A DNA stretch of 42,821 nucleotides from positions 1 to 42,821 of the forward strand of contig MHTH01000015.1 of the NCBI GenBank assembly GCA_001823055.1. Reading direction: 5' to 3'. Both the position numbers and the translations under genes were made by a program. Shown in pieces: positions 591 to 42,649 of the stretch. The DNA comes from Candidatus Vogelbacteria bacterium RIFOXYB1_FULL_42_16. GTDB lineage: Bacteria > Patescibacteriota > Minisyncoccia > Phycocordibacterales > XYD1-FULL-46-19. Under the pieces are notes generated by a model. The model made no database searches, was not told where the DNA came from, and saw nothing but the letters and a program-made list of their open reading frames with translations. How positions within the stretch are numbered: position 1 is the stretch's first letter; each line of letters starts with the position of its first letter.

Positions 591-3500
591 ATGCAATTAA
601 AATCGCTGGAAATTGGCGGGTTTAAATCGTTCGGCAAGAAATCGTCGCTCTTTTTTGACGCGCCAATTACCGCCGTGGTGGGCCCGAACGGTTCTGGTAA
701 ATGTGTTGACGGGTCAACCTTAATTCAACTTGAAGACGGTTCTGTTATTTCAATCAAGGAGTTATTTTTAAAGGCCAATCGTGTCCCTAGCTTTGTTGAA
801 CAGTATGATGATGGTATGGCCATCAAAGGTAACGGGTCTATCAAAGTGGCATCATTGAATCTCGAGACCTTAAAAACAGAATGGCAACCGATATCAGCTT
901 TTATTCGTCGGACAGCGCCAACGTCGATGATTGATATCACCACTCGTTCGGGGCGAGTGATTAAGGCTACACCGTATCACCCTCTTTTTTCGTATGTTAA
1001 TGATCGAGTTGAAACCTTGCGTGCTGATGCCATAAAGATTGGGGAAAAAATTGCCGTGCCACGAATAATCACAACGGAAGGCCAATTACAACCTCTGTTG
1101 ATGTTTGAAATTGCCACCATGTTTGGTCCAGAAGAGGGTATTTATGTTCCATATAGTTCAGCTTTACTTGGAGTCTTGGATAGTCAGATGGAACTACTTG
1201 GAATAAAAACCACTACCGCTTTTGCCAGAGTTTGTGGAACCCCAGAGAAAGTTTTTGCTCGATTGCGTCAAACCCAAGCTCTGCCGGCCTGTTATTTGCC
1301 GAATCTTTATCGGGGGAATGTTTTTGAATCTGCTTTATCGCAAAGGGTTTTGAAATCGAGAGGTTCGGGGACGATGAAAGTGCCTGAATACCTTGATAAA
1401 GAATTTGCTCGATTTTTGGGTTATATAATCTCCGAAGGACGAGTCAGTCGATCGGCTCAAGTGTGGTTTGTTAATGAGGAGCCAGAAATAATTGATGATT
1501 TCATTGATTGTTCAAAGCATTGCTTCGATCTCGAGCCACATGTTTTTTCGTATAAAAAAGGAACAAAGGATGTCATTATTTTTTCCAAGATTCTTACTAA
1601 GTTACTAGATAGAATGTTTGGTTTGAAGATAGATGGTGGCTCTCGGGATAAAATTGTGCCACCGCAAATTTTTCAATCGCCTCAAAATGTGATTACGGCT
1701 TTCCTATCGGCTCTCTATTCCGGTGATGGGTATTTTCATTTGATTGAAAGACCTAAACGACAACAATATATCGAATATTCCACTGCTAGTGAAGATTTGG
1801 CGCGAGGGGTGGCTACATTATTATTACGTTTGGGGATTGTTGCCTTGATTAGAAAAAATAATAAATGCGCGACAAACACCAAAGCAAAAACCAAGAGAAT
1901 TTATTGGTCAGTCTTCGTGTATGGCAATGAGCAAATCAGTCGCTTTGTTGAAATAATCAAGCCATATGGGAGAAAACGCACGGTCGCCGAGAAAATGCAT
2001 TTGTTGAATATCGATAATTCAAATCCTAATCTTGATTTATTGCCAAAGAATATTTTAGAAGATGTCCGCTCCTTGGTGAAAGAAGCCCAAATCAATGTCA
2101 AATCAGCGCGCAAAATTTTACCGCTTTTAGGCGCCTACTGTGAACGGCGATGTCTGCCAAGTCGCCAAGGTGTCATTAAAATCTTAGAATTTGTTAAAAA
2201 AAATGGTCAGATAAATCCTCGGACCAGTTTGTATTTTAAGAGGCTCAAAACCATCGCCGAATCCGATATCTTATGGGATGAGATCATCGCTATAAAAACT
2301 GAAAACGGCAAAGATTATGTCTATGATTTAACTGTGGAAGGAAATCATAATTTTATTGCCAATAATTTTTTTGTTCACAATAGTAACATCGCCGAAGCTT
2401 TTCGTTGGGTGCTGGGCGAGCAATCACTCAAGTCTCTGCGTGGTAAGCGGGGCGAGGATTTAATTTTTTCTGGTCCGGTGGCTAATAGTCGACTCAATCG
2501 GGCGTCGGTGTCGGTGGTGTTTGATAACGCTGATCGGCATTTTGATTTAGATTTTGATGAAGTGAAAATTACGCGCGAAGTTTTTCGCGATGGACTAAAC
2601 GAATATTCGATCAACGGCACGGTTGTTCGTCTGCGTGATATTTTAGAATTACTATCCAAAATTTCTCTTGGCGCTTCCGGTCATCATATTATTTCTCAAG
2701 GCGAAGCCGATCGAGTCCTGACAGCTAGCCCGATCGAGCGCCGAACGATGATCGAAGAAGCTCTCGGATTAAAATTGTACCAATGGAAACTCGACGAAAG
2801 CGAGAAAAAGCTAGCCAAGACCGAAGACAACAAAAAACAGGTGGAATCTCTGCGTCGAGAAATTGCGCCCCATTTGAAATTTCTTAAAAAACAAGTAGAA
2901 AAAATCGAAAAGGCGGATGAGTTGCGTCGAGAGTTGAAAGTCTTGTATCGCGAATATTTAAAACGGGAAAAGGTCCATATCGATTTCTGGCAGAAAAAAT
3001 TGAGTGGCGAAAAACAATCATTGCTGGAAGAATTGCGATCGCTCGATGAGCGGATCAATCTTTTAAGCCAGAAACTACACGCCGACAATTCGGCGAGCGT
3101 TGAACAAAAAAAGATTATTGAAGCCGAACAAGCTTTGCGCGCTCTGCGATTGCGACGTGATGAGATTTCTCGTAGTCTGGGGCGCTTGGAGGGTTTGATC
3201 GAAGTCAAGACCGCGCGTCTGTCGGCTGGACCAGAGGACGAGACTGATCGGCCGATTTCTTTGTCGGCGGTGAGAAATTTGGCCGGTAAAATTACCGAAG
3301 ATTTAGCCAAAGCCGAACAAGCGCCGGATTTTTCTTTGGCCCGGCAAATTTTAGCGGAGATCCGTCGGCGCTTTGACGATTTTTTTGGTGCCTATAATCG
3401 ACCGAAAGAAGAGACCAATTTAGAAGCAGAAGTGGCTAAATTGCAGACCGAGAAAAAAACGTTGGAAAATGAAATTGAATCTAGTTCGACTGAAGAAAAA

Positions 3501-4517
3501 AATATTTTAGCTAAAATTGCCGAACTAAAACAGGCCATTAAAACCGAAGAAGATTCCACACGCGGAGCGGAACGAGAATTGTTTGAGTTAAAAACGCGTC
3601 GCGGTGAATTATCATCGAAGCGGGGCGAATGGCAAGCGCGAGAAGAAACGATTCGGCGGGAAGAAGAAGATTTCCAACGCGAAATCCAAGAAGGTTTAGT
3701 CTTGGTGGATCGGGAAATTTTAATGTTTGAAAATGAAGTGGTCTCGATCGATGAAGTCTTGGCTGAAGATCGGCGAGTGCAGGAAGAACGTCGGCGACAG
3801 GTGGAAAAAGTGAAAATCCGCTTGGAAGATATGGGGGCCGAACGTGGTGATGTGTTGGAAGAATTCAAAGAAGTGACCGAACGTGATACTCACTTAGAAA
3901 AAGAGCTAGGTGATTTAGAAGCGAGCGCTAATTCACTCAAACAAGTGATGCTGGAATTGCGGACCAAGATCGATGTCGAATTTAAAGAGGGAATTATTAA
4001 AATCAATTCGGCTTTTCAACAATTTTTTGCTGAGATGTTTGGTGGCGGTTCGGCTAAATTGGAAGTAGTAGCACCGGTGGTGCGGAAAAATCGCGAAGCG
4101 CGCTTGTTGTCCGATGATGAAGTGATGTTGGAGATGGATAAAGAGGAAGTGGTGGTGGGTAAAGAAGGGATTGATATTAATGTCACTTTGCCACGGAAAA
4201 AAATCAAAGGCTTGGCGATGTTGTCTGGCGGGGAGAGGGCGCTAACTTCGATTGCGCTTTTGTTTGCGATGTCACAAGTCAATCCGCCGCCATTTTTGAT
4301 TCTGGATGAAACTGATGCGGCCCTCGATGAAGCCAATTCACGCAAGTATGGCCAGATGGTGGTCAATTTATCTAAAAGTTCACAACTGATCGTCATTACT
4401 CATAACCGCGAAACCATGACTCATGCCGGTATTTTGTATGGCGTGACTATGGGCAGTGATGGCGTCTCGCGCCTGCTATCGATCAAGTTTGATGAAGCGA
4501 CGGCTTATGCAAAGTGA
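591..4517 (+). CDS. smc: chromosome partition protein SMC, interrupted by an intein (1308 aa precursor, about 748 aa after splicing)
   Basis: The N-terminal head is FKSFGKK...AVVGPNGSGK|intein|SNIAEAFRWVLGEQS. The middle is long and heptad/charged-rich. The C-terminal head carries the signature LSGGERALTSIALLFA and Walker B FLILDETDAALD. Confidence 0.92.
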   Translation: MQLKSLEIGGFKSFGKKSSLFFDAPITAVVGPNGSGKCVDGSTLIQLEDGSVISIKELFLKANRVPSFVEQYDDGMAIKGNGSIKVASLNLETLKTEWQPISAFIRRTAPTSMIDITTRSGRVIKATPYHPLFSYVNDRVETLRADAIKIGEKIAVPRIITTEGQLQPLLMFEIATMFGPEEGIYVPYSSALLGVLDSQMELLGIKTTTAFARVCGTPEKVFARLRQTQALPACYLPNLYRGNVFESALSQRVLKSRGSGTMKVPEYLDKEFARFLGYIISEGRVSRSAQVWFVNEEPEIIDDFIDCSKHCFDLEPHVFSYKKGTKDVIIFSKILTKLLDRMFGLKIDGGSRDKIVPPQIFQSPQNVITAFLSALYSGDGYFHLIERPKRQQYIEYSTASEDLARGVATLLLRLGIVALIRKNNKCATNTKAKTKRIYWSVFVYGNEQISRFVEIIKPYGRKRTVAEKMHLLNIDNSNPNLDLLPKNILEDVRSLVKEAQINVKSARKILPLLGAYCERRCLPSRQGVIKILEFVKKNGQINPRTSLYFKRLKTIAESDILWDEIIAIKTENGKDYVYDLTVEGNHNFIANNFFVHNSNIAEAFRWVLGEQSLKSLRGKRGEDLIFSGPVANSRLNRASVSVVFDNADRHFDLDFDEVKITREVFRDGLNEYSINGTVVRLRDILELLSKISLGASGHHIISQGEADRVLTASPIERRTMIEEALGLKLYQWKLDESEKKLAKTEDNKKQVESLRREIAPHLKFLKKQVEKIEKADELRRELKVLYREYLKREKVHIDFWQKKLSGEKQSLLEELRSLDERINLLSQKLHADNSASVEQKKIIEAEQALRALRLRRDEISRSLGRLEGLIEVKTARLSAGPEDETDRPISLSAVRNLAGKITEDLAKAEQAPDFSLARQILAEIRRRFDDFFGAYNRPKEETNLEAEVAKLQTEKKTLENEIESSSTEEKNILAKIAELKQAIKTEEDSTRGAERELFELKTRRGELSSKRGEWQAREETIRREEEDFQREIQEGLVLVDREILMFENEVVSIDEVLAEDRRVQEERRRQVEKVKIRLEDMGAERGDVLEEFKEVTERDTHLEKELGDLEASANSLKQVMLELRTKIDVEFKEGIIKINSAFQQFFAEMFGGGSAKLEVVAPVVRKNREARLLSDDEVMLEMDKEEVVVGKEGIDINVTLPRKKIKGLAMLSGGERALTSIALLFAMSQVNPPPFLILDETDAALDEANSRKYGQMVVNLSKSSQLIVITHNRETMTHAGILYGVTMGSDGVSRLLSIKFDEATAYAK
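702..2381 (+). mobile_element. intein (560 aa) with LAGLIDADG homing-endonuclease domain, inserted in the SMC Walker A motif
   Basis: It starts with Cys (CVDGSTLIQLEDGS, block A) and has TPYHPLF (block B, TxxH). The two dodecapeptide motifs are FLGYIISEGRV and FLSALYSGDGYF. Blocks F/G are VYDLTVEGNHNFIANNFFVHN, followed by the +1 Ser. Removing it restores GPNGSGK-SN exactly. Confidence 0.92.
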
Positions 4518-5950: not shown

Positions 5951-6241
5951 ATGTGGTACAAAACAAATGGCCATTGGCCTAGAAAGGGATTTGGTATGTG
6001 CTTGGCAAAGAACCCAAAGAAGGGGCAGACTTCCAAAGATGCTCCAGACAGTATCAGTGCGCAACAAGACCAATCAACACCTGTTCTGCGTGGCCTCGAC
6101 ATATTCAAGGTGTGTCCGAGTGCTAAACGATACGCTGATGAGATGGATGCTTGGGCTCAGCGCTCGAGAGATGCCCCTCGTTTGGTTGGAGGGTGTTCGC
6201 CTCGTCCCGGGTTTGAACACACCAACTGTACTCTTGAGTGA
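5951..6241 (+). CDS. hypothetical protein (96 aa), possibly leaderless
   Basis: The ATG lies 6 nt after a TAGAAT -10. The local GC is higher than the flanks. I recognise no family, and an overlapping ORF in another frame adds uncertainty. Confidence 0.35.
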   Translation: MWYKTNGHWPRKGFGMCLAKNPKKGQTSKDAPDSISAQQDQSTPVLRGLDIFKVCPSAKRYADEMDAWAQRSRDAPRLVGGCSPRPGFEHTNCTLE

Positions 6242-6258
6242 AAAGCAAGGAGAACCTT

Positions 6259-6444
6259 ATGGACAGGCATGGCGAAGAGAACGGCATCTCAAAAGGAGAT
6301 GATCCGCACCACGGAAAGGTCTATGGCGTGAATGTCCTTCCATTTATGCCGGCGGTGGAGGCCTACCTTAAGGAGATGGCAGAAGCCAGAAGGCAATCAG
6401 CCTTTTCTCAACGGGTGATCGGCCCTTGTAAGCCAGCATGGTGA
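6259..6444 (+). CDS. hypothetical protein (61 aa)
   Basis: AAGGAG (6247-6252) lies 6 nt upstream of the ATG at 6259. A terminator follows the gene. Confidence 0.4.
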   Translation: MDRHGEENGISKGDDPHHGKVYGVNVLPFMPAVEAYLKEMAEARRQSAFSQRVIGPCKPAW

Positions 6445-6468
6445 TGCTCTGTTCACCTCGTGGCAACA

Positions 6469-6512
6469 AGCCTTGACCTTGCGGTTTCCGCAGAGTTGAG
6501 GCTTTTCTTTTT
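6469..6512 (+). terminator. rho-independent terminator
   Basis: The stem agccttgaccttgcgg / ccgcagagttgaggct includes G-U pairs and is followed by tttcttttt. Confidence 0.55.
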
Positions 6513-6526
6513 AAAAAATATTCTAG

Positions 6527-6576
6527 TCAATCCTTACGCTTTTTCTCACGACCGTGAGAAAAAGCGTAAGGATTGA
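6527..6576. terminator. long perfect hairpin between convergent genes
   Basis: tcaatccttacgctttttctcacg / cgtgagaaaaagcgtaaggattga form a roughly 23-bp perfect stem. It lies 48 nt downstream of the minus-strand rnr stop. Confidence 0.6.
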
Positions 6577-6623
6577 TACTCTCTAAAATCTAATAGCTAA
6601 AAGCGATAACCTAACAGCTGTTT

Positions 6624-8198
6624 TTAAATCAACTCAAAATCGATCCAGCCACGATCGGGATTGACTTTTTTGATGCGGGCATGGACTTTGTCGCCGAGAC
6701 GGTATTGTTTTTTGTGACGGCGACCGATCAAGGCGAATTTTTTTGGTTTTAATTCGTAAAAATCATCGCCGAGATCACGAATACGGACTAGGCCCTCGCC
6801 ACCCGTGGCGCTGTCTTCCACAAAAATGCCGAACTCGGTGACACCAGCGATGACGCCATCTATTTCTTCGCCCACATGCTGGGCAAAATATTCGGCAATC
6901 TTGGTTTTCTTGGATTCGCGTTCGGCTTCGGCGGCCGAGCGTTCCATCAGCGAAGCATGAATAACTAGTTCGGCGCACTGTTGTAATTGCGCTTCAGTTG
7001 GTCTTTTGCCGGCTAAATACAAAGCAAGCAGGCGATGAACTAAGAGGTCGGGATAACGCCGAATGGGCGAAGTGAAGTGAGTATAGTGGGGAAAAGCCAA
7101 ACCATAGTGACCGATATTATCGAGAGAATAAATCGCTCGGCTCATGGATTGAATAGTGGCGCGGTTGATAATAGCTTCTTCGGGCTGACCAGAGGCGGAA
7201 GCCAGTAATTTTTTCAAAGCGGCGGTGCTGACTTTTTTATTTTTAATTTCCAGATCGTAACCGAGGGGTTTGAGAAAGAGTGCTAGGTCGCGCAATTTGT
7301 CTTGATCGGGCGCGTCGTGAATACGATAGACAAAATACCCCATTTTATTTTTGTTGTATTTGGAAGCAAATTCGGCTACGCGTCGATTAGCCAAGAGCAT
7401 CAAGTCTTCGACTAATTTGTGAGAACGAGTCAACTCGACGCGATAGATTTGTTGCGGTTGGCCGTGATCATCTAAAACAAATTCGGTTTCTCGATCGACA
7501 AAAGCCAGAGCGCCGGCAATTTGTTTTTGTTCGTCGAGTTTTTTGGTTAGACTATCGAGAATTTTTAATTCCACCAGATAATCACCTCGGCCGTGTTCGA
7601 AAATTTCGTCGACTTCTTCGTAAGTAAAACGACGATCAGATTTGATAACCGTGCGACCAAACCACTCGCTTTCGATTTCGGCTTCGGGCGTTAAAACAAA
7701 CACGGCAGAAAAAGCCAAACGTTCTTGCTGGGGCTGAAGACTACACAGATCGTTTGATAGAATTTCCGGCAACATCGGTACCACTCGATCGACATAATAA
7801 ACTGAAGTGGCGCGTTTACGGGCCTCTTTGTCGACGACTGAACCTTCCGGCAGATAGTAGCTAACATCAGCAATATGCACACCGACTTCATAACGATTGT
7901 TTGGCAATTGACGCAGAGAGATCGCGTCGTCAAAATCTTGAGCGCGTGGTGGATCGATCGTGAGGGTGGTGACATTACGAAAATCACGGCGTTGGCGGAT
8001 TTCTTGTTCCCAATTTTGGCGAGCTTTTTCGGCGATTTTTTGGCTTTCTAGTAAAACTTTTTCCGGAAAGGCTGGTTTAGGGAGAGGGGGCAAGGGAGTT
8101 TTAATGATCGGTTTATCGACTATGTTTGGCTTATTAAAAAACTTCTCTGGCTGTTTGTGGCCATAGTATGGTCTGGAGGCGGGATGGGATTTAGTCAT
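6624..8198 (-). CDS. rnr: RNase II/R family 3'-5' exoribonuclease (short form: RNB domain + C-terminal S1)
   Basis: RNB motifs are DPPRAQDFDDAISL, VHIADVSYY, YVDRVVPMLP and HYGLAFPHYTHFTSPIRRYPDLLVHR. The C-terminal S1-like stretch is GVIAGVTEFGIFVE. Confidence 0.85.
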   Translation of the reverse strand: MTKSHPASRPYYGHKQPEKFFNKPNIVDKPIIKTPLPPLPKPAFPEKVLLESQKIAEKARQNWEQEIRQRRDFRNVTTLTIDPPRAQDFDDAISLRQLPNNRYEVGVHIADVSYYLPEGSVVDKEARKRATSVYYVDRVVPMLPEILSNDLCSLQPQQERLAFSAVFVLTPEAEIESEWFGRTVIKSDRRFTYEEVDEIFEHGRGDYLVELKILDSLTKKLDEQKQIAGALAFVDRETEFVLDDHGQPQQIYRVELTRSHKLVEDLMLLANRRVAEFASKYNKNKMGYFVYRIHDAPDQDKLRDLALFLKPLGYDLEIKNKKVSTAALKKLLASASGQPEEAIINRATIQSMSRAIYSLDNIGHYGLAFPHYTHFTSPIRRYPDLLVHRLLALYLAGKRPTEAQLQQCAELVIHASLMERSAAEAERESKKTKIAEYFAQHVGEEIDGVIAGVTEFGIFVEDSATGGEGLVRIRDLGDDFYELKPKKFALIGRRHKKQYRLGDKVHARIKKVNPDRGWIDFELI

Positions 8199-12680: not shown

Positions 12681-12770
12681 ATCCCGCCCTATTTCGGCCT
12701 TGGGCGAGTGCGAATAGCACATCCTGTTTTGGGCGAAGACCAAGGCCTGTTTTAGAAATAGGGCTGGGAT
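12681..12770. other. 90-nt extended stem-loop (candidate small RNA or REP-like element)
   Basis: atcccgccctatttc (12681-12695) pairs with gaaatagggctgggat (12755-12770, one bulge). ggccttgg (12696-12703) pairs with ccaaggcc (12740-12747). The apical hairpin is gtgc-gaata-gcac. Confidence 0.35.
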
Positions 12771-12790
12771 TGAGCTCAATTAATCGAGCG

Positions 12791-12819
12791 TTGACCCCGC
12801 TAGGGCAAATTGCTATGAT
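12791..12819 (+). promoter_or_regulatory. promoter TTGACC-17-TGcTATGAT (extended -10), leaderless configuration
   Basis: The -10 element ends 8 nt before the ATG at 12828. No SD is present. Confidence 0.55.
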
Positions 12820-12827
12820 TTAGCCAC

Positions 12828-13418
12828 ATGGAAATTTTGAGCAAACTTTTTGGATCTAATGGCAAGGTAAAAATTATTCGCCTCTTTCTCTATAATCCGG
12901 AAAAAGTCTTTTCTCTCGAGGAGGTGGCCAAAAAAGCCAAAGTGGGAAAAGCGGAAGTTCGACGGGAAATAAATATCTTGGTGGCCGGCCGGTTTCTAAA
13001 AGAAAGAAGGGCTTGGACTAAACGAGGAAAAGTTTCTTCCCGAAAAAATCATATTCTATCTGAAGATTATCCCTATCTTGAAGCTCTGCGCTTGCTTTTC
13101 AACTCTGATTTTTTCAGCAATCGCCGTCTAATTGCTAATCGTTTTAAAAAATGCGGTCGTCTGAAGTTGTTGGTGATTTCCGGCGCTTTTGTTCAAAGAT
13201 TGGATGGACCGGCCGATATTGTTATTGTCGGTGATGATCTAAAGCGACCGGTGGTGGATAATGTGGTAAAAAATATCGAAGCGGAAACCGGTCGGGAATT
13301 GACCTATGCTGTCTTTGATACCAGCGATTGGCTTTATCGTTTTCATTCCAGTGATCGTTTTGTTCGTGACTTGTTGGAATTTGATCATGAATATCTGGTC
13401 AATAAGATCGGTTTTTAA
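12828..13418 (+). CDS. hypothetical protein with N-terminal winged-helix-like segment
   Basis: It is a clean 196-aa ORF. The N-terminus FSLEEVAKKAKVGKAEVRREINILVAGRFL looks like wHTH. I recognise no confident family. Confidence 0.6.
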   Translation: MEILSKLFGSNGKVKIIRLFLYNPEKVFSLEEVAKKAKVGKAEVRREINILVAGRFLKERRAWTKRGKVSSRKNHILSEDYPYLEALRLLFNSDFFSNRRLIANRFKKCGRLKLLVISGAFVQRLDGPADIVIVGDDLKRPVVDNVVKNIEAETGRELTYAVFDTSDWLYRFHSSDRFVRDLLEFDHEYLVNKIGF

Positions 13419-13558
13419 TATCCACAGATTGGCGCTAGACTCTACCCAAAATTCTCAAGAAGTGGTATCATCTTAGCAAGGGGTAATATTAAGTGGTCGA
13501 AAGCCAAAAAGACCCATTTATTAAAAGCTTTTAAAAGTTTATTTATTAACTAAAATAT

Positions 13559-14245
13559 ATGTTATTGCAAACTTGGAGTCAGGTTCTCACTGCTTCTTTT
13601 CAAGGATTGTGGTTGGGATTGATAAAGTTTTTACCCAATATCTTGATTTCAGTAGTCCTCTTTGTTATCGGTTGGGTATTTGGAGAGACCGTTGGTCACT
13701 GGGTGGCCAAATTGGTCAATGCTCTCAAAATTGATCGAGTGCTGGAAAGCATTGGTCTGCGGGAGTTGATGGAGAAAGCTGGTTATCGCTTGAATTCCGG
13801 TAAATTTATCGGTTTCTTAATCAAGTGGTTTGTGATCGTTGCTTTCTTGATGGCAGCTTTGGAAGTGCTTGGTCTCAATCAGATCAATATCTTCTTGCAG
13901 ACGGTGGTTTTGTCCTACATCCTAAATGTCGTCGTTTCGATCTTGATTTTTATGGTTGGTGCGGTTTTGGCTGGCGCCTTGCAGAGAATCGTTGAAGCTT
14001 CGGCAAAAGCGGCCGATATTAAAGCGGCGGCGGCTTTTGGTGTCATTACCAAATGGGCGGTGATTATTTTCACTTTCGTTGTCGTCATTGGTCAATTGGG
14101 CATCAAAGATAATTACTTCCAGATTCTCTTTACTGGGGTAGTGGCGGCGATGGCGATTGCGGTTGGTTTGGCTTTTGGTTTGGGTGGCAAAGATGCCGCT
14201 GGCCGTTTGGTCAACAAACTGGAAGACGAAATGAAGAGCCGTTAA
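13559..14245 (+). CDS. integral membrane protein with repeated conserved TM-helix units (mechanosensitive-channel-like N-terminal type)
   Basis: There are about 6 TM segments. Repeated ...IG/ VIGQLGI... units resemble the 'conserved TM helix' repeat family. Confidence 0.65.
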   Translation: MLLQTWSQVLTASFQGLWLGLIKFLPNILISVVLFVIGWVFGETVGHWVAKLVNALKIDRVLESIGLRELMEKAGYRLNSGKFIGFLIKWFVIVAFLMAALEVLGLNQINIFLQTVVLSYILNVVVSILIFMVGAVLAGALQRIVEASAKAADIKAAAAFGVITKWAVIIFTFVVVIGQLGIKDNYFQILFTGVVAAMAIAVGLAFGLGGKDAAGRLVNKLEDEMKSR

Positions 14246-35525: not shown

Positions 35526-35533
35526 TACCCACA

Positions 35534-35571
35534 AAAACACCCGCCCTTTTTGAAAAAGGGCGGGTGTTTTT
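35534..35571 (+). terminator. rho-independent terminator
   Basis: aaaaacacccgcccttttt-ga-aaaaagggcgggtgttttt. Confidence 0.85.
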
Positions 35572-35633
35572 AGGTTGTTATGCTATGATTTAGCCCAACT
35601 TCTTTTTTTAAGAGATTGTTATATAATGATAAA

Positions 35634-37820
35634 ATGTTTAAAGAAAGGATAAAATCAGATGTGTTAGAAGTCATCTTTGATCAAGATAAACATAGAGAAG
35701 AAAGAATTTTAGAGCAATTTACGTCGGAGCAGGTTGAAATCATAAGATCAAAACAAAAAGTTCTTTCGTCTCTAGCCTATTTTATTGGTCGAGATTTTTC
35801 TATTCCAGTCGAGCTAAACGAACCTGGGGCTGGTTGGCATTGGAATTTTAAAGCGAATATCATCAGAATTGATCCGATAGATCTGCTGGAAAAACCGATG
35901 GATTTTCTACGCTTCGTCATTAGTCACGAAGGTGGGCATCGGCGAATTTCTCGCACGGAATTTATACCAATAAAAGAATGGGAAGAGGAAGGTTTTTCTT
36001 TTTTAATGAATTCGATCGAAGATCCACGCGACAATAATTTTGTAGCTGATAATTACCCAGTTTTTGCCGAACAAATGGGTGTGGCTTATGAACCGCAATT
36101 TGATCTGGAAGAAAAGTCAAAAGACAGAGCCTTTGATCAGCTGGGCTACACGCCTCGCTTTATGCAGGCCGGTTTTGAGTATATCAAGCAATGGTATCGT
36201 CAAAGACAGAATAAACCTCAAGAACTATCTGCCGATTTACCGGCAGAAGTCAGGGAAGTGGTGGAAAAGACATTGGAATCCGCTAGTCGTTCGTGGTGGC
36301 TTTATCCGTCAAAATCCGAAGCCGATGAAGATGAGCAAAACATCAAAAATTATGCCCAAGCTTCTTATCACTTGAATCGTGAGAAAATTTGGCCGGAATT
36401 TAAAAAACTGGTCGAACAAGATCTGGCTGATCAAAAAATGGAAGAGTTTATTAAGGATATGCAGAAAGATCAGGCCAAGGGTGGTGAGAGGGGGGAATCA
36501 GGCGATTCCATTCCACAGAAATTAAAGGATAAATTAAAGCCGGAAGAAGTGGAGGCTTTAGAGAAAGCCATAGACCAGATGACTAAACATGGTGAAGAAG
36601 ATGTTTCTAGCCATGAAAGGTCCGAGGGGGGAGATCAGACGGAACAAACAGGGGGTGAAATTAAAGAAAGTGATGAACAAGGCGGAAACGGAAAAGCCAT
36701 ATCGTTGGATTCTTTATCGTCAGAATTAAAACAAAAAATAAAAGATTTTATTGATGCTCTGCCAGATGAACAAAAGAAAAAGCTAGCTGAAAAAGCGGTC
36801 AAAGCCTTGGCTGATTTTGAAAAAGAACTTAACGAAGAATTGGCCGGTAAATTAGCGGATAATCCGGATAAAAAAGAAGCTAGAGAGCAAGAAGAGAAGA
36901 CGACTGAAGGGGGAGAGGAACGTGAGGAGATGGCCGATCAAGACCGAGATGATGGTGAATCAGAAAAAGAAAAAGAGCGCAGACAGAGCCTGTCTAAACT
37001 GAAAAAAGAATTAAAACGCATCATCGAAAAAGACCAAGGAGCCTATGAAAAAGCACGGCGCGAAGTGGCGCCGATCATCAGCAAATTAACCGATGAGCTT
37101 AGGGATATTTTTCGAGAACGTCGGAAGGTCAAACATGAAGCTGGACACAAATCTGGTCTTAGAATCAATATCACCAAAAGAATAGGAGAAATAGCTAGAG
37201 GTATCTTGCCTATGGAAAGTCGGGCTTGGGAAAAAAGGGAGGCGCCAGGAGAAAAAGATTATGCCATTACTCTCTTGATAGATTTGTCTGGTTCAATGAG
37301 GGGCAAGAAAATAGAAGAAACTTTCAAGGCAACAATAGTTTTGGCCGAGGTCTTGAATAAGTTGTCGATTATGACCGAAATTCTGGGTTTTAATGATCGT
37401 ATCCATGAATATCAGAGATTCAAAGAACGTCTGTCTCCGGAAATTAGATCGAAAATGGGAACTATGCCGGCAGAGGTAGGTTCAGAGCGGGCCCAATGGA
37501 ATGATGATGGCTGGGCGGTCAGTGAAGCTTCGACTCGTTTAGCTAAGAGGAGGGAATTGGAAAAATTTCTGGTGGTTTTGTCTGATGGTTTACCTGAGCC
37601 ATCATCGGCTCATGGTGGTTTAGCCTATGAATTATCCAAGGTAATTAAGGGGATAGAAAAAGACGAAGATCAAAAGATTGTCGGCTTAGGTATTGGTCCC
37701 GATACGAACCATGTGGCCAACTATTATCGCCACCACTTGGCCAATGTTGGCTTGACTGAGATGGCTAGCCGGCTAGCCGATTTGCTCAAAGAGATGATTG
37801 TCGATTACAATAAGTTTTGA
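35634..37820 (+). CDS. HExxH metallopeptidase-like + acidic coiled region + C-terminal vWA (MIDAS) domain protein
   Basis: HEGGH is at 35925-35939 within FLRFVISHEGGHRRI. A roughly 200-aa E/K/D-rich region follows. The vWA MIDAS DLSGS is at 37281-37295, then LVVLSDGLPE. The ATG at 35634 lies 6 nt after TATAAT (35622-35627). There is no signal peptide. Confidence 0.8.
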   Translation: MFKERIKSDVLEVIFDQDKHREERILEQFTSEQVEIIRSKQKVLSSLAYFIGRDFSIPVELNEPGAGWHWNFKANIIRIDPIDLLEKPMDFLRFVISHEGGHRRISRTEFIPIKEWEEEGFSFLMNSIEDPRDNNFVADNYPVFAEQMGVAYEPQFDLEEKSKDRAFDQLGYTPRFMQAGFEYIKQWYRQRQNKPQELSADLPAEVREVVEKTLESASRSWWLYPSKSEADEDEQNIKNYAQASYHLNREKIWPEFKKLVEQDLADQKMEEFIKDMQKDQAKGGERGESGDSIPQKLKDKLKPEEVEALEKAIDQMTKHGEEDVSSHERSEGGDQTEQTGGEIKESDEQGGNGKAISLDSLSSELKQKIKDFIDALPDEQKKKLAEKAVKALADFEKELNEELAGKLADNPDKKEAREQEEKTTEGGEEREEMADQDRDDGESEKEKERRQSLSKLKKELKRIIEKDQGAYEKARREVAPIISKLTDELRDIFRERRKVKHEAGHKSGLRINITKRIGEIARGILPMESRAWEKREAPGEKDYAITLLIDLSGSMRGKKIEETFKATIVLAEVLNKLSIMTEILGFNDRIHEYQRFKERLSPEIRSKMGTMPAEVGSERAQWNDDGWAVSEASTRLAKRRELEKFLVVLSDGLPEPSSAHGGLAYELSKVIKGIEKDEDQKIVGLGIGPDTNHVANYYRHHLANVGLTEMASRLADLLKEMIVDYNKF

Positions 37821-37834
37821 TATTATTAAAAAAT

Positions 37835-38260
37835 ATGGATAAAACTAACACTGTAAAAGTCGAAGAATTCATGGGTTTTTTCAAAGCCCAGTCGGAGATT
37901 GGTTTGCTGGTTTTTAATACCAAAGAAGAACTTGAAAAGACCGAGCAGTTTTTAACTGACAATGGTTTTGTGCTATCTTTTAATTGTTTCCAAATTATGA
38001 ATTATCTGAAAAACAAACAATCAGTTATCTTATCTCTAAGTGAAAAAATTACGCCAGAAATTTATAGTCTGATTACTCAATACTCCGATCGAGCGGGTGA
38101 AATCCAGATGATGAATCCGGCGACAATGGTTTTGGAACAAGTTGAGTTTGATCCCAAGGAATCTCATTTATTGCTTCTAGCCACGGAGACTATCTGGGGA
38201 AAAATTGACGAGGAATTTGACCTAAAAAACAAAGTCGGACTAATGGAAAGAATAAAATAA
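37835..38260 (+). CDS. hypothetical protein (141 aa), middle gene of the vWA/AAA+ operon
   Basis: The ATG at 37835 lies 14 nt after the upstream stop. Its own stop is 1 nt before the next ATG. I recognise no family. Confidence 0.55.
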   Translation: MDKTNTVKVEEFMGFFKAQSEIGLLVFNTKEELEKTEQFLTDNGFVLSFNCFQIMNYLKNKQSVILSLSEKITPEIYSLITQYSDRAGEIQMMNPATMVLEQVEFDPKESHLLLLATETIWGKIDEEFDLKNKVGLMERIK

Positions 38261-38261
38261 T

Positions 38262-40229
38262 ATGGCCGGAGTGGAAAAACAATTTAATATGATGCCTTCG
38301 GCCGAAGAAGGTTCTAAGTCAAAGAGGAAATCAAAAGCTATGCCAGTGTTGGATAGTTTGGAATTGCCGAGCGAAGATAGAGAGGTTTTATTGCCAGTAA
38401 AAGAGAGTGAGGGAAGCGTTTATTTTTTGGGTGTCGAGGTGCCAAAAGGCAGAGGTGGAGACCGGGTGCCAAATCCAGAGCGTTTTTCCGCTGATGTTTT
38501 GACCGACTTTGATTTTCGATTAATGAGAGATATCGCTGTCGCTTTGAAACTCAATCAGCCGGTTTTGATTGAGGGAGGTTCTGGTATTGGCAAATCTCGG
38601 ACTATTGATCGGATGTGTTCTCAATTGGACCGCGAATCATATTATGCCAATTGTCATGAATTTGACGCTGATGTTTTAATTGGCAAAATGACCACGACCG
38701 AAGAAGCCAAGAGCGGTTTTGGCTGGCGTGACGGCTTGGTGGTTGGCGCTATCAGGAATGGCGGGGTTTTGTTTCTGGATGAGTATAATTTTATGAAAGG
38801 CGGGACTCGAGCTGCTCTGCACGAAATAATTGACGCTATTCTACAAGGTAAAGATGAAATTACTTTAGTCGATAACCACGGCGAGAGAGTGCCGGTGCAT
38901 CCCGATTTTAGAATTATTGCCGCTCAAAATCCACCAGGTGGAAAGCATGGCGATCGAGAAGTGCTTGATCCGGCTCAATATACCAGATTCAGCCATGTAA
39001 AACTGCCGGAAAATTTGCCTAAAGACAGCAAAAGGGCTAGAGCTCTGGGTTTTTTGGGTAAGGATAATAAAATTACTATTGATCAGACAGAATACTTATT
39101 TTCCGGTGGCCTGTCGCTGGAAGCGCTCAAAGAAATTCCAGGTATAGAGGAATTGGTAGATAAATATATTGAATTTACCGAGACGGTGGAAGCGATGGCA
39201 GAAAAAGGGGAATTGGGCGCTGATCAGTCTCAACCGGCTTATTTTTCCTTTCAGCGCGATTATGATCGTGTGATAAATTTTGTTCAATCTTTTTATCGAG
39301 GTGATGTCAACGACACTTTTCAAAGAGCCTTGAGATATTATTTTGCCAATCGATTTGAAAGCATTTCTGATCGGGCCAAAGTAGAAGAGATGATCGCTCA
39401 CATTAAATATGTCGCTCCGACTAATAGCCGTCGCCTAGCTTTAGACGAAATCTCTTTTGAAAAATCAAAAACCGAGGAAGGGATAGATTATCTAGTTAAG
39501 TCGTTTGGCAAGGGCAAGGAAAAAATTATGCCGGGTCAACTACTCAAAGGTCCAGACGGTAAAATCAGTGTTTTTGTCGGCGTATCCAAAACAGACGGCT
39601 CACCAGTTCTTCTCCCACATAAAAGTGTGGAAAGTGATATGGCGGAGATTCCAGCTGATATCCTAGAGAAGCAAACTGACTTTCTTAAAGAGGTTTTTAG
39701 TTCATGGGGTGTTAGTGATGAAAAAATAACCAAAGCAGACATCACTCCAGCTTGGCAAGATCCTAAAAGCCTTAAACCTGAAGATTGGGAAAAACTAAAG
39801 AGCAATGTAGATGAAGAAAAGTTTGGCGAGTACACACTAAATCCGGAAATGGGTGGATTTAGTGACGCTGATTTTGAAAGTTTGTCCAAGTCTGAAAAAT
39901 TCAAAAGATTCAAAACAGAAAAATTACCCGATGATTGGAATGGCAAGCCATTGGCGGAAGTGGCCACTTATATTATGGAAACTTACGGCGATAGATATTA
40001 TCTGCCGGGTATAGAATACTGGCAATGGCTGTCCGCCAATCCCGACAAATCACCAGCTGAACTCAAAGACGGTGATTACCAGTTTTTGTTTGGTTCTACC
40101 CTTCGCCACTCCCGTGGCCACTGGAGCGTGCCGTGTGTGAGCTGGAATGGCTCCAAGTGGAACCGGAGCGCGGACTGGCTCGACAATAGCTGGTACTCGC
40201 ACTCTCGGGTTGTTCTCCTCGAGCGATGA
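38262..40229 (+). CDS. MoxR-like AAA+ ATPase (AAA_5-type) with C-terminal DGR-diversified ligand-binding (C-type-lectin-like) domain
   Basis: Walker A is GGSGIGKS (38574-38597), Walker B is VLFLDEYNF, and sensor-1 is FRIIAAQNPPG. The C-terminal ...YLPGIEYWQWL...GHWSVPCVSWNGSKWNRSADWLDNSWYSHSRVVLLER contains the VR. There is no signal peptide or TM. Confidence 0.85.
   Translation: MAGVEKQFNMMPSAEEGSKSKRKSKAMPVLDSLELPSEDREVLLPVKESEGSVYFLGVEVPKGRGGDRVPNPERFSADVLTDFDFRLMRDIAVALKLNQPVLIEGGSGIGKSRTIDRMCSQLDRESYYANCHEFDADVLIGKMTTTEEAKSGFGWRDGLVVGAIRNGGVLFLDEYNFMKGGTRAALHEIIDAILQGKDEITLVDNHGERVPVHPDFRIIAAQNPPGGKHGDREVLDPAQYTRFSHVKLPENLPKDSKRARALGFLGKDNKITIDQTEYLFSGGLSLEALKEIPGIEELVDKYIEFTETVEAMAEKGELGADQSQPAYFSFQRDYDRVINFVQSFYRGDVNDTFQRALRYYFANRFESISDRAKVEEMIAHIKYVAPTNSRRLALDEISFEKSKTEEGIDYLVKSFGKGKEKIMPGQLLKGPDGKISVFVGVSKTDGSPVLLPHKSVESDMAEIPADILEKQTDFLKEVFSSWGVSDEKITKADITPAWQDPKSLKPEDWEKLKSNVDEEKFGEYTLNPEMGGFSDADFESLSKSEKFKRFKTEKLPDDWNGKPLAEVATYIMETYGDRYYLPGIEYWQWLSANPDKSPAELKDGDYQFLFGSTLRHSRGHWSVPCVSWNGSKWNRSADWLDNSWYSHSRVVLLER
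40101..40221 (+). repeat. DGR variable repeat (VR), last 40 codons of the AAA+ ATPase gene
   Basis: It aligns without gaps to TR (40596-40716) over 121 nt. The 11 differences are all at TR adenines. All 92 non-A positions are identical. Confidence 0.9.
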
Positions 40230-40284: not shown

Positions 40285-40326
40285 ACCCGCCCCAGTTTTT
40301 TTTAAAACTGGGGCGGGTTGTCTTTT
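40285..40326 (+). terminator. hairpin/terminator downstream of VR
   Basis: acccgccccagtttt-tttt-aaaactggggcgggt is followed by tgtctttt, 64 nt after the VR end. Confidence 0.7.
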
Positions 40327-40595: not shown

Positions 40596-40716
40596 CTTCG
40601 CAACTCCAATGGCCACTGGAACGTGCCGTATGTGAACTGGAATGGCTCCAAGTGGAACCGGAACGCGAACTGGCTCGACAATAGCTGGAACTCGAACTAT
40701 CGGGTTGTTCTCCTCG
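40596..40716 (+). repeat. DGR template repeat (TR)
   Basis: It is rich in AAC/AAT codons (29 adenines) and in the same orientation as VR. The ORF-track peptide 40563-40748 simply mirrors the VR frame. Confidence 0.9.
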
Positions 40717-40732: not shown

Positions 40733-40772
40733 CCCCACTAAAAACTAATTGGTTTTTAGTGGGGTTTTGTTT
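40733..40772. terminator. hairpin immediately 3' of TR (overlaps avd stop on the opposite strand)
   Basis: ccccactaaaaac-taattg-gtttttagtgggg is followed by ttttgtttc. Confidence 0.65.
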
Positions 40773-41172
40773 CTATTGCTACAGCTGGTTTCGGAATAGG
40801 AATTTTTGGGCATTGATTTTTCCAACCATAAAGCATTCGGCCAACTTCCTCGATCTTGATTGATAAAGAGAGAAATTTTTTGCTGTTAATTCCCTTTAAT
40901 TCAAAGAGAACATAGAGCATAAATTTTAAAGTGTCATTTTTGATAATTGCTTGGCTGACTGGGATTATTCGCATTTCTTTAGGCGAAAATTGAGCTTCGG
41001 CGGTTAAACCGATAATGTCGGCAAAAAGTTTATCAATTCCAATACCTAATGAATGTCGTAGGGTTTTAGGGAGACCGTGGATATATTGTTGCCATTCAAC
41101 ATAAATTGTCAATAATTTACTGGCAATGCCAGAAAGCTTCGGGGGGGGGGTAACTTCTTGGTTTGTGTTCAT
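40756..41172 (-). CDS. avd: DGR accessory variability determinant-like four-helix-bundle protein
   Basis: It is a 138-aa helical protein lying between TR and RT. LPKTLRHSLGIGIDKLFADIIGL...FLSLSIKIEEVGRMLYGW resembles the four-helix-bundle ('23S rRNA intervening sequence protein') family to which Avd belongs. Confidence 0.7.
   Translation of the reverse strand: MNTNQEVTPPPKLSGIASKLLTIYVEWQQYIHGLPKTLRHSLGIGIDKLFADIIGLTAEAQFSPKEMRIIPVSQAIIKNDTLKFMLYVLFELKGINSKKFLSLSIKIEEVGRMLYGWKNQCPKIPIPKPAVAIETKPH
41141..41150. repeat. G10/C10 homopolymeric tract inside avd codons 8-11 (TPPPK)
   Basis: gggggggggg is read directly at 41141-41150. On the coding strand it reads acc ccc ccc ccg. Confidence 0.95.
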
Positions 41173-41216: not shown

Positions 41217-42221
41217 ATGCCTAAATATGAAATACCATTTTTTGCTGAAATTATCTCTTTAGATAATCTTTTTGCTAGTTGGAATGAATTTAGGCAAGAT
41301 AAAAAAACTAAAACCGATGTAGTTCTTTTTTCCGCTAACTTAATTGCTAATCTGCTAAAATTAGAGCAAGAATTAAAAACTGGTCTCTATCGGCACGGAC
41401 AATATTATCATTTTAAAATCAGCGACCCTAAACCACGCGATATTCATAAGGCGTTGGTCAAAGATCGAGTTGTTCATCATGCTCTTTATCGCGCTTTGTA
41501 CCCATATTTTGAACGGTTGTTTATTTTTGATTCTTATTCTTGCCGACTTAAAAAGGGGACTCATCGAGCAATTGGGCGATTGGCTAAATTTGCCGGTCAA
41601 TGTAGCCAAAACCAAACTTTAGCAATCTCGGTTTTGAAAGGAGATATAAAAAAATGCTTTGCCTCCATTGATCACCAAACACTCAAAGCTATTCTTGCCA
41701 GACAAGTTAAGGATCCCGAGACGATGAATCTTTTGAGTATGGTCATTGATAGTTTTTCACCCAATGAAGAAAAAGTGGGGTTACCGCTCGGTAATCTGAC
41801 CAGTCAGCTTTTTGTTAATGTTTATCTCAATGAACTTGATCGATTTGTTAAGCACCAGCTTAAAGAAAAATATTATCTTCGTTATACCGATGATTTTGTG
41901 ATTCTAAGTAGTGACCAAGAAAGATTGAAAAATTTAATTCCTCAAATTAATTTATTTTTGGCTAACAACTTAAAACTTACTCTTCATCCCACTAAAGTTC
42001 TAGTAAAAACTTTTTCGTCAGGTATCGATTTTCTGGGTTGGGTTCATTTTTTTAATCACCGCGTCTTGCGGACAGTCACTAAAAAAAGAATGTTTGCTAA
42101 GATTAAAGAACAACCAACCCCGGCCATCATCAATTCTTATCTTGGGCTTTTGAAACATGGCCACGCTTTTAAATTACAGGAAAGAATTAGAAAGCTAAAA
42201 AATGTTGACGCCAGCCCTTAA
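41217..42221 (+). CDS. DGR reverse transcriptase
   Basis: RT motifs are present, including YTDD (YLRYTDDFVILS) and the DGR-typical LGNLTSQ (GLPLGNLTSQLFVNVYLNELD). At 334 aa it is adjacent to TR and avd. Confidence 0.9.
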   Translation: MPKYEIPFFAEIISLDNLFASWNEFRQDKKTKTDVVLFSANLIANLLKLEQELKTGLYRHGQYYHFKISDPKPRDIHKALVKDRVVHHALYRALYPYFERLFIFDSYSCRLKKGTHRAIGRLAKFAGQCSQNQTLAISVLKGDIKKCFASIDHQTLKAILARQVKDPETMNLLSMVIDSFSPNEEKVGLPLGNLTSQLFVNVYLNELDRFVKHQLKEKYYLRYTDDFVILSSDQERLKNLIPQINLFLANNLKLTLHPTKVLVKTFSSGIDFLGWVHFFNHRVLRTVTKKRMFAKIKEQPTPAIINSYLGLLKHGHAFKLQERIRKLKNVDASP

Positions 42222-42256: not shown

Positions 42257-42649
42257 ATGGCAAAAGATTACTCTGATTGGCACAACAGAAAAACAAGTAT
42301 TGATAACACTGCTCTCGAGCGAGTCTTTTTTCATGAGCGTGAGGTTTGGTGGTGTGCCATTGGGCTCAATGTGGGTTTTGAACAAGATGGTAAGGGTGAA
42401 GAATTTGTTAGGCCAGTAGTGGTCTTCAAAAAATTTAATAAAGAGGTCTTTTGGGCTATACCATTAACAACCAGAAACAAAACTGGTCGTTACTATGTTC
42501 CCATTGATCTTGGTGATGGCGTTGAACGTTCCGCCATTATTTCACAGCTTCGATTGATTGATGCTAAGAGATTGAAGGACAAGTTTAATGTTGTTAAAGA
42601 AGCTGATTTTGCTGAAATTGAAAAAGCGGTTATCGCTCTATGCCGATAG
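42257..42649 (+). CDS. PemK/MazF-family toxin-like endoribonuclease
   Basis: REVWWCAIGLNVGFEQDGKGEEFVRPVVVF...IPLTT...SAIISQLRLIDAKRL matches the MazF/PemK pattern (G.EQ.G..RP, P.T, Q.R.ID..RL). Confidence 0.8.
   Translation: MAKDYSDWHNRKTSIDNTALERVFFHEREVWWCAIGLNVGFEQDGKGEEFVRPVVVFKKFNKEVFWAIPLTTRNKTGRYYVPIDLGDGVERSAIISQLRLIDAKRLKDKFNVVKEADFAEIEKAVIALCR

Follow-up and report, generated by a model that had tools for sequence, protein, structure and literature searches.

The locus described here raises the question of what a hypervariable binding domain does on a protein that looks like a cytoplasmic ATPase. It lies in a 42,821-nt contig of Candidatus Vogelbacteria bacterium RIFOXYB1_FULL_42_16 (MHTH01000015.1, read on the forward strand; the whole stretch is called the window below), a bacterium belonging to the candidate phyla radiation (CPR). 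Three co-directional genes, g1, g2 and g3, encode a zincin-like protein with a von Willebrand factor A (vWA) domain, a small protein and an AAA_5 ATPase, and the last of them ends in the variable region (VR) of an adjacent diversity-generating retroelement (DGR). The original prediction, made from the letters of the DNA, described a mutable tip fused to an ATPase motor and saw in it a possible anti-phage sensor. This study indicates that the locus is almost certainly a naturally active, chromosomal DGR cassette of the CPR type, composed of target, template region (TR), reverse-strand avd and reverse transcriptase (RT), whose target is the ATPase of a conserved three-protein AAA_5/vWA machine. 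The best explanation overall is that the DGR retargets an AAA_5/vWA/zincin machine, with a role in conflict or surveillance favoured; the probability of this reading is put at about 0.5.

The DGR cassette and its activity in nature

The genes of the operon and the elements of the cassette are as follows.

35634-37820, forward strand: g1, 728 aa with an ATG start; zincin-like N-terminal domain, acidic linker and C-terminal vWA domain (CobT_C-like) with a metal-ion-dependent adhesion site (MIDAS)
37835-38260, forward strand: g2, 141 aa; conserved small subunit encoded between the vWA and ATPase genes, no family match
38262-40229, forward strand: g3, 655 aa; AAA_5 ATPase whose C-terminal domain is diversified by the DGR
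40101-40221, forward strand: VR, the last 40 codons of g3; 17 adenine-templated codons, residues 616-648
40205-40221, forward strand: segment resembling an initiation of mutagenic homing (IMH) site, TCGGGTTGTTCTCCTCG, an invariant 17-nt GC-rich stretch with which the VR ends; found unchanged in the TR, 40700-40716
40285-40318, forward strand: GC-rich 15-bp inverted repeat, 56 nt past the g3 stop codon
40596-40716, forward strand: TR; 29 adenines and 17 adenine-bearing codons, 11 of them AAY
40756-41172, reverse strand: avd; bAvd 1e-7 and DivGenRetAVD 6e-9, both below the curated cut-offs
41217-42221, forward strand: RT; RVT_1 2e-20, motifs GNLTSQ and YTDD

The open reading frame (ORF) listing and translation confirmed that the three genes are packed with gaps of 14 nt and 1 nt. 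The VR differs from the TR at 11 of 121 nt; all 11 mismatches fall on TR adenines, each at codon position 1 or 2, and the chance of 11 out of 11 falling on adenines is approximately 1.5e-7. The earlier assignment of the last 40 codons of g3 to a VR is borne out by this pattern. The VR ends 8 nt before the g3 stop codon, and its templated codons allow approximately 1e17 protein variants. A GxxxSQ motif in the RT is diagnostic of the DGR type. The avd gene is transcribed opposite to the TR and the RT and is located between them, an arrangement also seen in related CPR loci; no further VRs were found within the window. The GC-rich 3' end of the VR and the inverted repeat that follows it match the IMH and downstream cruciform features that Wu et al. 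2018 (PMC5758913) describe, and we infer their role from this likeness; the inverted repeat at 40285-40318 may act as the terminator of the operon and/or as a DGR cruciform element downstream of the IMH. The cassette probably belongs to the CPR-typical B3 class of Wu et al.

Population variants provide the evidence for activity. In an independent groundwater assembly from another sample (L098), 5,690 nt match the window with the exception of 11 bases; every one of these is a VR base at a TR-adenine position, and the TR shows no difference. A second assembly (L099) shows the same pattern, again with 11 VR bases at TR-adenine positions and an identical TR; outside the VR, the two assemblies show 0-1 differences over 4.6-5.7 kb. 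At the protein level, the 8 residues at which one homologue (P0001) departs from g3 all belong to adenine-templated codons, and in a second (P0122) 13 of the 30 differences fall within the 17 adenine-templated codons (Fisher p = 4e-16). A second lineage is variable at 18 of its last 42 positions, against 34 of the other 609. Since L098 differs from the window solely at TR-adenine sites of the VR, the DGR is active in nature, and the possibility that it is an inactive relic was ruled out by these variants taken together. The adenine-templated polymorphism that the original prediction had anticipated was thus observed, in L098 and L099 as the sole form of variation within the VR, while the TR stayed constant.

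Some further features of the cassette were observed. Directly following the TR is a 14-bp hairpin (40733-40764), which shares sequence with the 3' end of the convergent avd and probably terminates transcription in both directions, setting the 3' end of the TR RNA. Near its N-terminus, avd encodes PPP in a 10-base C homopolymer (41141-41150, minus strand). This tract also has 10 bases in three assemblies of the same species; in a 79% identical relative (L001, around 10900) it has 9, and the avd frame is broken so that an 86-aa ORF is left. Slipped-strand switching of DGR activity between on and off is one possible role of the tract; an assembly error could also account for the difference. A short second target gene or VR-like copy with the same variable domain occurs near the DGR in three loci (L001 11981-12697, L014 6959-7174 and L012 63-210).

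The operon, its proteins and their conservation

The gene order vWA protein (CobT_C, 690-750 aa), small protein (131-148 aa), ATPase was found in 15 of the 15 orthologous loci checked, one of which (L019) lies on a contig too short to display the vWA gene. The loci come from Paceibacterota, Berkelbacteria, Staskawiczbacteria, Dadabacteria, a metagenome-assembled genome (MAG) of Bdellovibrionales and an archaeal MAG; identity of the ATPases ranges from 87% down to 33-38%, and the intergenic spacing is often equal. A scan of genome contigs gave approximately 10 true orthologues among 80 loci; the remainder were distant AAA_5 proteins and were excluded. An RT and/or an A-biased TR is present in 9 of the 15 loci (L001, L004, L011, L014, L015, L091-L093 and the fragmentary L003), and 6 of these 9 carry a reverse-strand Avd. 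In four further loci, the 3' end of the ATPase gene is the site of an A-biased TR/VR pair (19/19, 18/19, 17/17 and 18/20). The Dadabacteria locus has the same three genes with an ATPase of 393 aa that lacks any VR domain, suggesting that the core of vWA protein, small protein and ATPase predates its link with the DGR.

Related arrangements were seen in other genomes. On two non-CPR-looking contigs (L006 7001-13448 and L008 4724-11132), genes for an AAA_5 protein of 373-374 aa, a zincin-vWA protein of 715-718 aa and a long AAA_5 protein of 1,043-1,049 aa occur together; the long protein's C-terminal region is non-variable and helical-looking, and neither g2 nor a DGR is present. A C-terminus of this helical type is also found in other homologues, of 640-720 aa. 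Orthologous operons also occur in MAGs assigned outside CPR, labelled Gammaproteobacteria (L013), Bdellovibrionales (L017) and archaeon (L019). No TR was found within L013, L018 or L019. These operons could represent mis-binned CPR contigs, horizontal transfer or remote TRs. In L092, a gene resembling the SU10_MCP major capsid protein (12721-13890) lies approximately 3 kb downstream of the DGR and may belong to an adjacent prophage.

The domains and motifs of g3 and g1 were located as follows.

38559-38990, forward strand: AAA_5 module of g3, residues 100-243; AAA_5 9e-14, 52 bits against a cut-off of 22
38574-38597, forward strand: Walker A of g3, GGSGIGKS
38769-38786, forward strand: Walker B of g3, LFLDEY
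38907-38990, forward strand: sensor-1/arginine region of g3, including FRIIAAQNPPG at 38907-38939
39624-40226, forward strand: C-terminal domain of g3, residues 455-655, approximately 200 aa; AlphaFold2 (AF2) mean confidence (pLDDT) 94.6
35634-36443, forward strand: N-terminal domain of g1, residues 1-270; AF2 pLDDT 88
35925-35939, forward strand: HEGGH motif of g1 (H98, E99, H102)
36015-36041, forward strand: IEDPRDNNF motif of g1, on the helix after the HExxH helix
36444-37043, forward strand: acidic linker of g1, residues 271-470, low conservation; 57 D/E against 39 K/R
37251-37817, forward strand: vWA/MIDAS domain of g1; CobT_C 1e-19, VWA 2e-5, PDB CobT 8e-11
37281-37295, forward strand: MIDAS motif DLSGS of g1, invariant in 11 full-length homologues

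The HEGGH, DLSGS, Walker A, Walker B and FRIIAAQNPPG motifs had all been named in the original prediction and were recovered, as was the long acidic region of g1, now placed at residues 271-470.

In g3, the Walker A, Walker B, sensor-1 and arginine residues are invariant among 17 homologues, and the protein is predicted to be a competent, catalytically intact ATPase. It had been called MoxR-like with a single AAA_5 module. The single module was confirmed; the label MoxR fits less well, as the PDB matches were to Midasin (4e-46, the best), NorQ (7e-12), CbbQ (4e-11) and CobS (2e-7), and by sequence comparison g3 is nearer to AAA_5 modules of these types than to MoxR proper. A total of 117 relatives of g3 were detectable, and their first ~380 residues are conserved. 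Their C-termini belong to several unrelated VR-like classes or to a helical-repeat class, or are absent (forms of 373-400 aa). The occurrence of a VR-less form, a helical-domain form and unrelated VR classes suggests that the ATPase C-terminus is an exchangeable specificity module. Homology between the variable domain of g3 and two other VR classes on orthologous ATPases was examined and rejected (hhalign probability at most 0.12); the classes have either been swapped or have diverged past detection.

A search with g3 residues 441-655 against 1.84 billion representative proteins gave a variable-domain family of 397 clusters, most members of which are stand-alone proteins of 220-290 aa. Two further scaffolds carry it C-terminally, a second AAA_5 family of greater length (736-800 aa) and an AAA_16-like protein, and in a transglutaminase-like protein it lies mid-sequence. 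It is a mobile DGR-target module without a Pfam model. In five proteins (P0146, P0152, P0168, P0165 and P0188), the same variable domain, of 190 aa, was seen on other scaffolds or standing alone.

The variable domain was modelled by AF2 with an alignment of 63 family members. The second half of the model has the order beta-alpha-alpha-beta-beta-beta-beta, which is the order of elements in C-type-lectin-like domains (CTLDs). The 17 templated residues fall at model positions 162-194, for the most part in alternation along the last strands, suggesting that they form one variable face. The top PDB neighbours were mostly CTLDs, none of them significant (Foldseek E of at least 0.34, probability at most 0.23, target-normalised TM score at most 0.49). 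A sequence link to known C-type lectin (CLec) families was rejected, as the 63 members had no match to FGE-sulfatase or Lectin_C in Pfam, a PDB profile search returned nothing relevant and BFVD gave no match. The CLec- or FGE-like fold proposed in the original prediction thus has the expected order of elements and a high model confidence on its side and no significant structural match; a C-type-lectin fold is plausible, not established.

The AF2 model of the g1 N-terminal domain shows a three-stranded sheet, an HExxH active-site helix and then a helix that bears E129. H98, E99 and H102 do not vary among 11 full-length and 35 N-domain homologues, and the pattern HE[GA]xH is invariant. E129 and D130 (IEDPR.NNF) are invariant in the 11 full-length homologues, and E129, invariant or nearly so overall, is a candidate third zinc ligand. 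The top Foldseek neighbours were LTA4H, selecase, jannalysin, IrrE and M1 aminopeptidases, none of them significant; the minigluzincins selecase and jannalysin reached probabilities of up to 0.91. No Pfam peptidase family matched g1 or its homologues. The acidic linker, 200 residues long, is unconserved among the 11 full-length homologues. The nearest solved relatives of the g1 MIDAS domain are CobT and the MIDAS domain of Midasin, and in both an acidic stretch precedes the MIDAS domain, as in g1.

The DUF2201-type architecture that the original prediction suggested for g1 was not recovered: no match to DUF2201 or DUF2201_N (PF09967, PF13203) was found in 11 homologues at E<=1. A phage family of unknown function, phrog_1576 (729 positions), matches g1 at 9e-25, and phage CobT was matched as well (PHROGs). 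In a tblastn search of 50,697 phage records, matches covered the vWA part alone (residues ~476-722) and never the zincin domain. A phage origin of g1 was rejected, as the phage matches touch only the vWA part and the window is core chromosome. In a Berkelbacteria locus (L014 479-2688), g1 is present as two ORFs, one of 491 aa for zincin and linker and one of 249 aa for the vWA domain. Many database homologues of the g1 N-terminal domain are likewise only 250-470 aa long; all of these may be real splits or the result of frameshifts in the acidic linker.

For g2, the description as a protein of no recognisable family held: no match was found in Pfam, NCBIfam, PADLOC, PHROGs or PDB sequences, its 14 homologues had no Pfam or PADLOC match, and a PDB profile search was also empty. 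A word-indexed homologue search gave 3 close matches only. The small proteins are alignable across all lineages.

The 5' boundary of the operon is marked by the following element.

35533-35571, forward strand: strong intrinsic terminator with an 18-bp stem, which ends the upstream cold-shock gene

This terminator before g1 and the inverted repeat at 40285-40318 after g3 are the only strong intrinsic terminators in the region; since they flank the three genes, g1, g2 and g3 look like one transcription unit. The best promoter-like site before g1 (35608-35635) has a -10 hexamer that ends on the ATG at 35634, and an in-frame TTG is found upstream, at 35616. The initial ~25 residues of g1 are not conserved, so that its true start codon is uncertain.

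A possible mechanism and its alternatives

The g3 protein probably forms a ring, by analogy with CobS, NorQ, CbbQ and Midasin, and the C-terminal, probably C-type-lectin-like domain of each protomer would be a retargetable binding surface. The g1 protein would be the usual vWA co-factor of such ATPases, its intact MIDAS and long acidic linker recalling CobT and the Midasin tail; its N-terminal domain is predicted to be an intact-looking HExxH...E zincin, and g2 may serve as a structural adaptor of small size. Binding of a cytoplasmic ligand to the variable domain would be coupled, through the vWA partner, to ATP-driven remodelling, and the zincin may then cut this ligand or, alternatively, be activated to cut a different target. 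The likeliest ligands are proteins from phages or other invaders, and the nature of the ligand is the weakest step. The role would then be conflict or surveillance, as proposed for MoxR-vWA-DGR loci by Kaur 2020 and Dore 2024. Taken as a whole, this working mechanism (ring ATPase with variable binder, vWA arm, zincin, non-self ligands) falls slightly short of an even chance. A more specific form of it is an immune machine in which a hexameric ring carries six lectin-like binders, rewritten by the DGR, that would catch invader proteins in the cytoplasm; by way of the MIDAS/vWA arm and the small adaptor, the ring would feed these to a built-in zincin or activate it, reverse transcription would reprogramme the binders, and the VR-less version would be an ancestor of fixed specificity. 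This form is unlikely.

Several observations weigh against the best explanation. The neighbours of the operon are housekeeping genes (rpoB/C, dnaG, rpoD, SMC) with no obvious defence island, and none of the PADLOC defence-system models matched g1, g2 or the g3 C-terminus. The best Foldseek match of the g1 N-terminal domain (E = 0.13) is not significant, that of the variable domain (E = 0.34) is below significance, and the variable domain found no counterpart in BFVD. Across 14 homologues, g2 has zero invariant residues, and its role is a guess. The apparently cytoplasmic location is read from a single hydropathy scan, and CPR bacteria may export proteins by a non-classical route. Because the core module also occurs on its own, with no DGR, housekeeping remodelling or maturation may be its basal role. 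The ligand, assembly state, ATPase activity and peptidase activity are all predictions. The anti-phage sensor of the original prediction finds no direct support at the locus, and membership in a known defence system was rejected, as PADLOC returned just generic AAA and RT matches.

The window is core chromosome, with genes for SMC, RNase R, rpoB/C, dnaG and rpoD; the SMC gene (591-4517) is split by an intein with a LAGLIDADG homing-endonuclease domain, and an Rfam scan detected a tRNA only. This setting among housekeeping genes, together with the lack of a PADLOC match, counts in favour of a rival reading, in which the operon encodes a CobS/CobT-like pair that matures or assembles a cellular client or inserts a cofactor, with the variable domain widening or shifting its range of clients, or of scavenged proteins derived from a host, and without a role in defence. 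The closest characterised relatives, CobS/CobT, Midasin (Rea1), CbbQ/CbbO and NorQ/NorD, are all maturation or remodelling factors, and in their general mechanism an AAA+ ring takes hold of a target and remodels it with the help of a MIDAS adaptor. The DGR-free core in Dadabacteria and the non-variable helical C-terminal domain of the L006/L008 variant also agree with such a housekeeping role. None of these relatives has a zincin, a hypervariable domain or a g2-like subunit. Hypermutation over approximately 1e17 variants with rapid turnover between populations fits poorly with a fixed client, and an intact-looking zincin suggests proteolysis rather than cofactor insertion. Genuine CobS and CobT were rejected for g3 and g1, which score far under the equivalog cut-offs of NCBIfam (TIGR01650, 25 against 558 bits; TIGR01651, 42 against 759 bits). 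No CobN, Rubisco or NOR context was seen at the locus, nor a CobN-like partner beside the operon, for which no systematic search was made. A pure housekeeping remodeller is rather unlikely on this evidence.

A hydropathy scan bears on where the proteins act. The maximum Kyte-Doolittle means over 19 residues are 1.44 for g1, 0.84 for g2 and 0.99 for g3, and no membrane-like hydrophobic segment was found in any of the three by this crude scan, which is not a dedicated predictor. The absence of signal peptides and transmembrane helices noted in the original prediction agrees with it, within the limits of so crude a test. That prediction had named four findings that would tell against it; three of them were looked for, and the VR proved variable, the genes kept their order in all 15 loci (with the vWA end of L019 unseen) and no hidden secretion signal appeared by hydropathy. 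What stood was its central picture of a mutable tip on an apparently cytoplasmic AAA+ ATPase, in an operon with a partner that carries a MIDAS-vWA domain and an invariant HExxH.

The same results bear on the idea that the variable domain, or the whole complex, is surface-exposed by a non-classical route and binds changing receptors on the host cells of this episymbiotic bacterium, a role that is the classical one for DGR targets. Surface or secreted binders make up most of the DGR targets characterised so far, adhesion is a frequent function of vWA domains, and Roux et al. link DGR targets mainly to cell-particle and virus-cell interactions. CPR bacteria are moreover host-dependent, a view for which Paul 2017 is cited by Dore et al. 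2024 (PMC10907252). Against a surface device stand the lack of a signal peptide or hydrophobic segment in g1, g2 and g3, the dependence of an AAA+ ATPase on cytoplasmic ATP, the absence of secretion genes from the operon in 15 of 15 loci and the remark of Roux et al. that CPR targets typically lack transmembrane domains. We consider a host-interaction or adhesion device very unlikely.

Directly 3' of the RT, at 42257-42649, the window contains a gene for a MazF/PemK-family toxin; at the matching position, the relative L003 has an AbiEii gene (6049-6660). Conflict-type neighbours of this kind would suit a pure sensor, in which the ATPase relays ligand binding and the zincin attacks proteins of its own cell, leading to growth arrest or abortive infection, while the ligand is not degraded. 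This is also the logic that Dore et al. 2024 proposed for DGR-linked MoxR systems. However, the toxin-type neighbours are not kept across the other loci, the effectors by which the published systems are defined (VMAP, caspase, trypsin or TIR) are missing, and the sensor differs from the best explanation in the peptidase target alone. Only a small probability is given to it. The DGR-retargeted AAA_5/vWA/zincin machine is the preferred reading in what follows.

Relation to known systems

According to Dore et al. 2024 (PMC10907252), citing Paul et al., AAA-ATPase-fused targets are the commonest DGR target architecture in CPR bacteria; the authors speculate that the ATPase transduces a signal and assign most RTs of CPR bacteria to a clade of their own. 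In Wu et al. 2018 (PMC5758913), a CPR class of VRs on Midasin-like AAA targets is described (category g1 / UVR4 in that work), its fold being left open. Roux et al. noted that CPR DGR targets lack transmembrane domains and left open whether these are genuine non-membrane targets. The present target shares with the CPR AAA-fused targets the CPR host, an N-terminal Midasin-like AAA_5 module, a VR at the extreme C-terminus and the lack of a transmembrane or signal sequence; the named members of its identical-protein cluster are Parcubacteria GW2011 MAGs, and the genome, of GW2011 type, belongs to the data that these surveys mined. Most likely, the locus is one of the catalogued CPR AAA-target loci, probably with nothing different at the target level. 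In the open literature searched, outside which Paul 2017 lies, no description was found of the zincin-vWA and small-protein operon partners, of a VR-less ancestral module, of an exchange of unrelated VR classes on orthologous ATPases or of a confident VR-domain model.

Kaur et al. 2020 (PMC7159879) and Dore et al. 2024 (PMC10907252) earlier proposed DGR-diversified MoxR-vWA ternary conflict systems, whose vWA protein bears a fused FGS/CLec domain as the part that the DGR diversifies. These VMAP/iSTAND systems share with the present operon an AAA+ ATPase, a vWA partner, a third protein, a peptidase within the system, a DGR-diversified C-terminal ligand-binding domain and a predicted cytoplasmic action, and they have been proposed to follow the same logic, with a variable binder linked to an NTPase and to an effector. 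They differ in that their variable domain is carried by the vWA protein, whereas here it is on the ATPase; their vWA domain is N-terminal with effectors after it, whereas here it is C-terminal with the zincin before it. Their third component combines an N-terminal peptidase, cyclase or EAD with a VMAP domain, in contrast to the 141-aa g2, in which, as in its 14 homologues, Pfam and PADLOC detected no VMAP, trypsin, caspase or EAD domain (a direct VMAP profile was not run). Their hosts are multicellular bacteria; the present host is an ultra-small CPR bacterium, and its ATPase groups with CobS and Midasin.

Another likeness is found in group 2.2 jumbo phages, for which Iyer et al. 2021 (PMC7824862) described a MoxR ATPase paired with a metallopeptidase-vWA protein. 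There too a vWA co-chaperone has an N-terminal metallopeptidase, and a coupling of remodelling to proteolytic processing was proposed. The phage pair differs in having no DGR, variable domain or g2 counterpart, and its proposed role is virion assembly. The operon is a variant of the DGR-linked AAA+/vWA systems, with a target class already known in CPR bacteria. The combination had been thought to be without a characterised example; this novelty does not extend to AAA-fused CPR targets or DGR-linked MoxR-vWA systems, which had been reported, and it may hold for the partners, of which no description was found in the literature searched.

In sum, DGR targets that look cytoplasmic have been on record for CPR bacteria since 2017, and the commonest of them is here shown to be one subunit of a strictly conserved operon of ATPase, small protein and zincin-vWA protein. 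A non-diversified version of this operon exists outside CPR, and what was an entry in a list becomes a testable three-protein system. If the machine does not work in the way preferred here, the locus stays an ordinary member of a known DGR class. If it captures and cleaves its ligands, or senses them, DGR-linked NTPase immunity would reach from multicellular bacteria to the smallest known cells, and the operon would encode a naturally programmable binder coupled to a protease.

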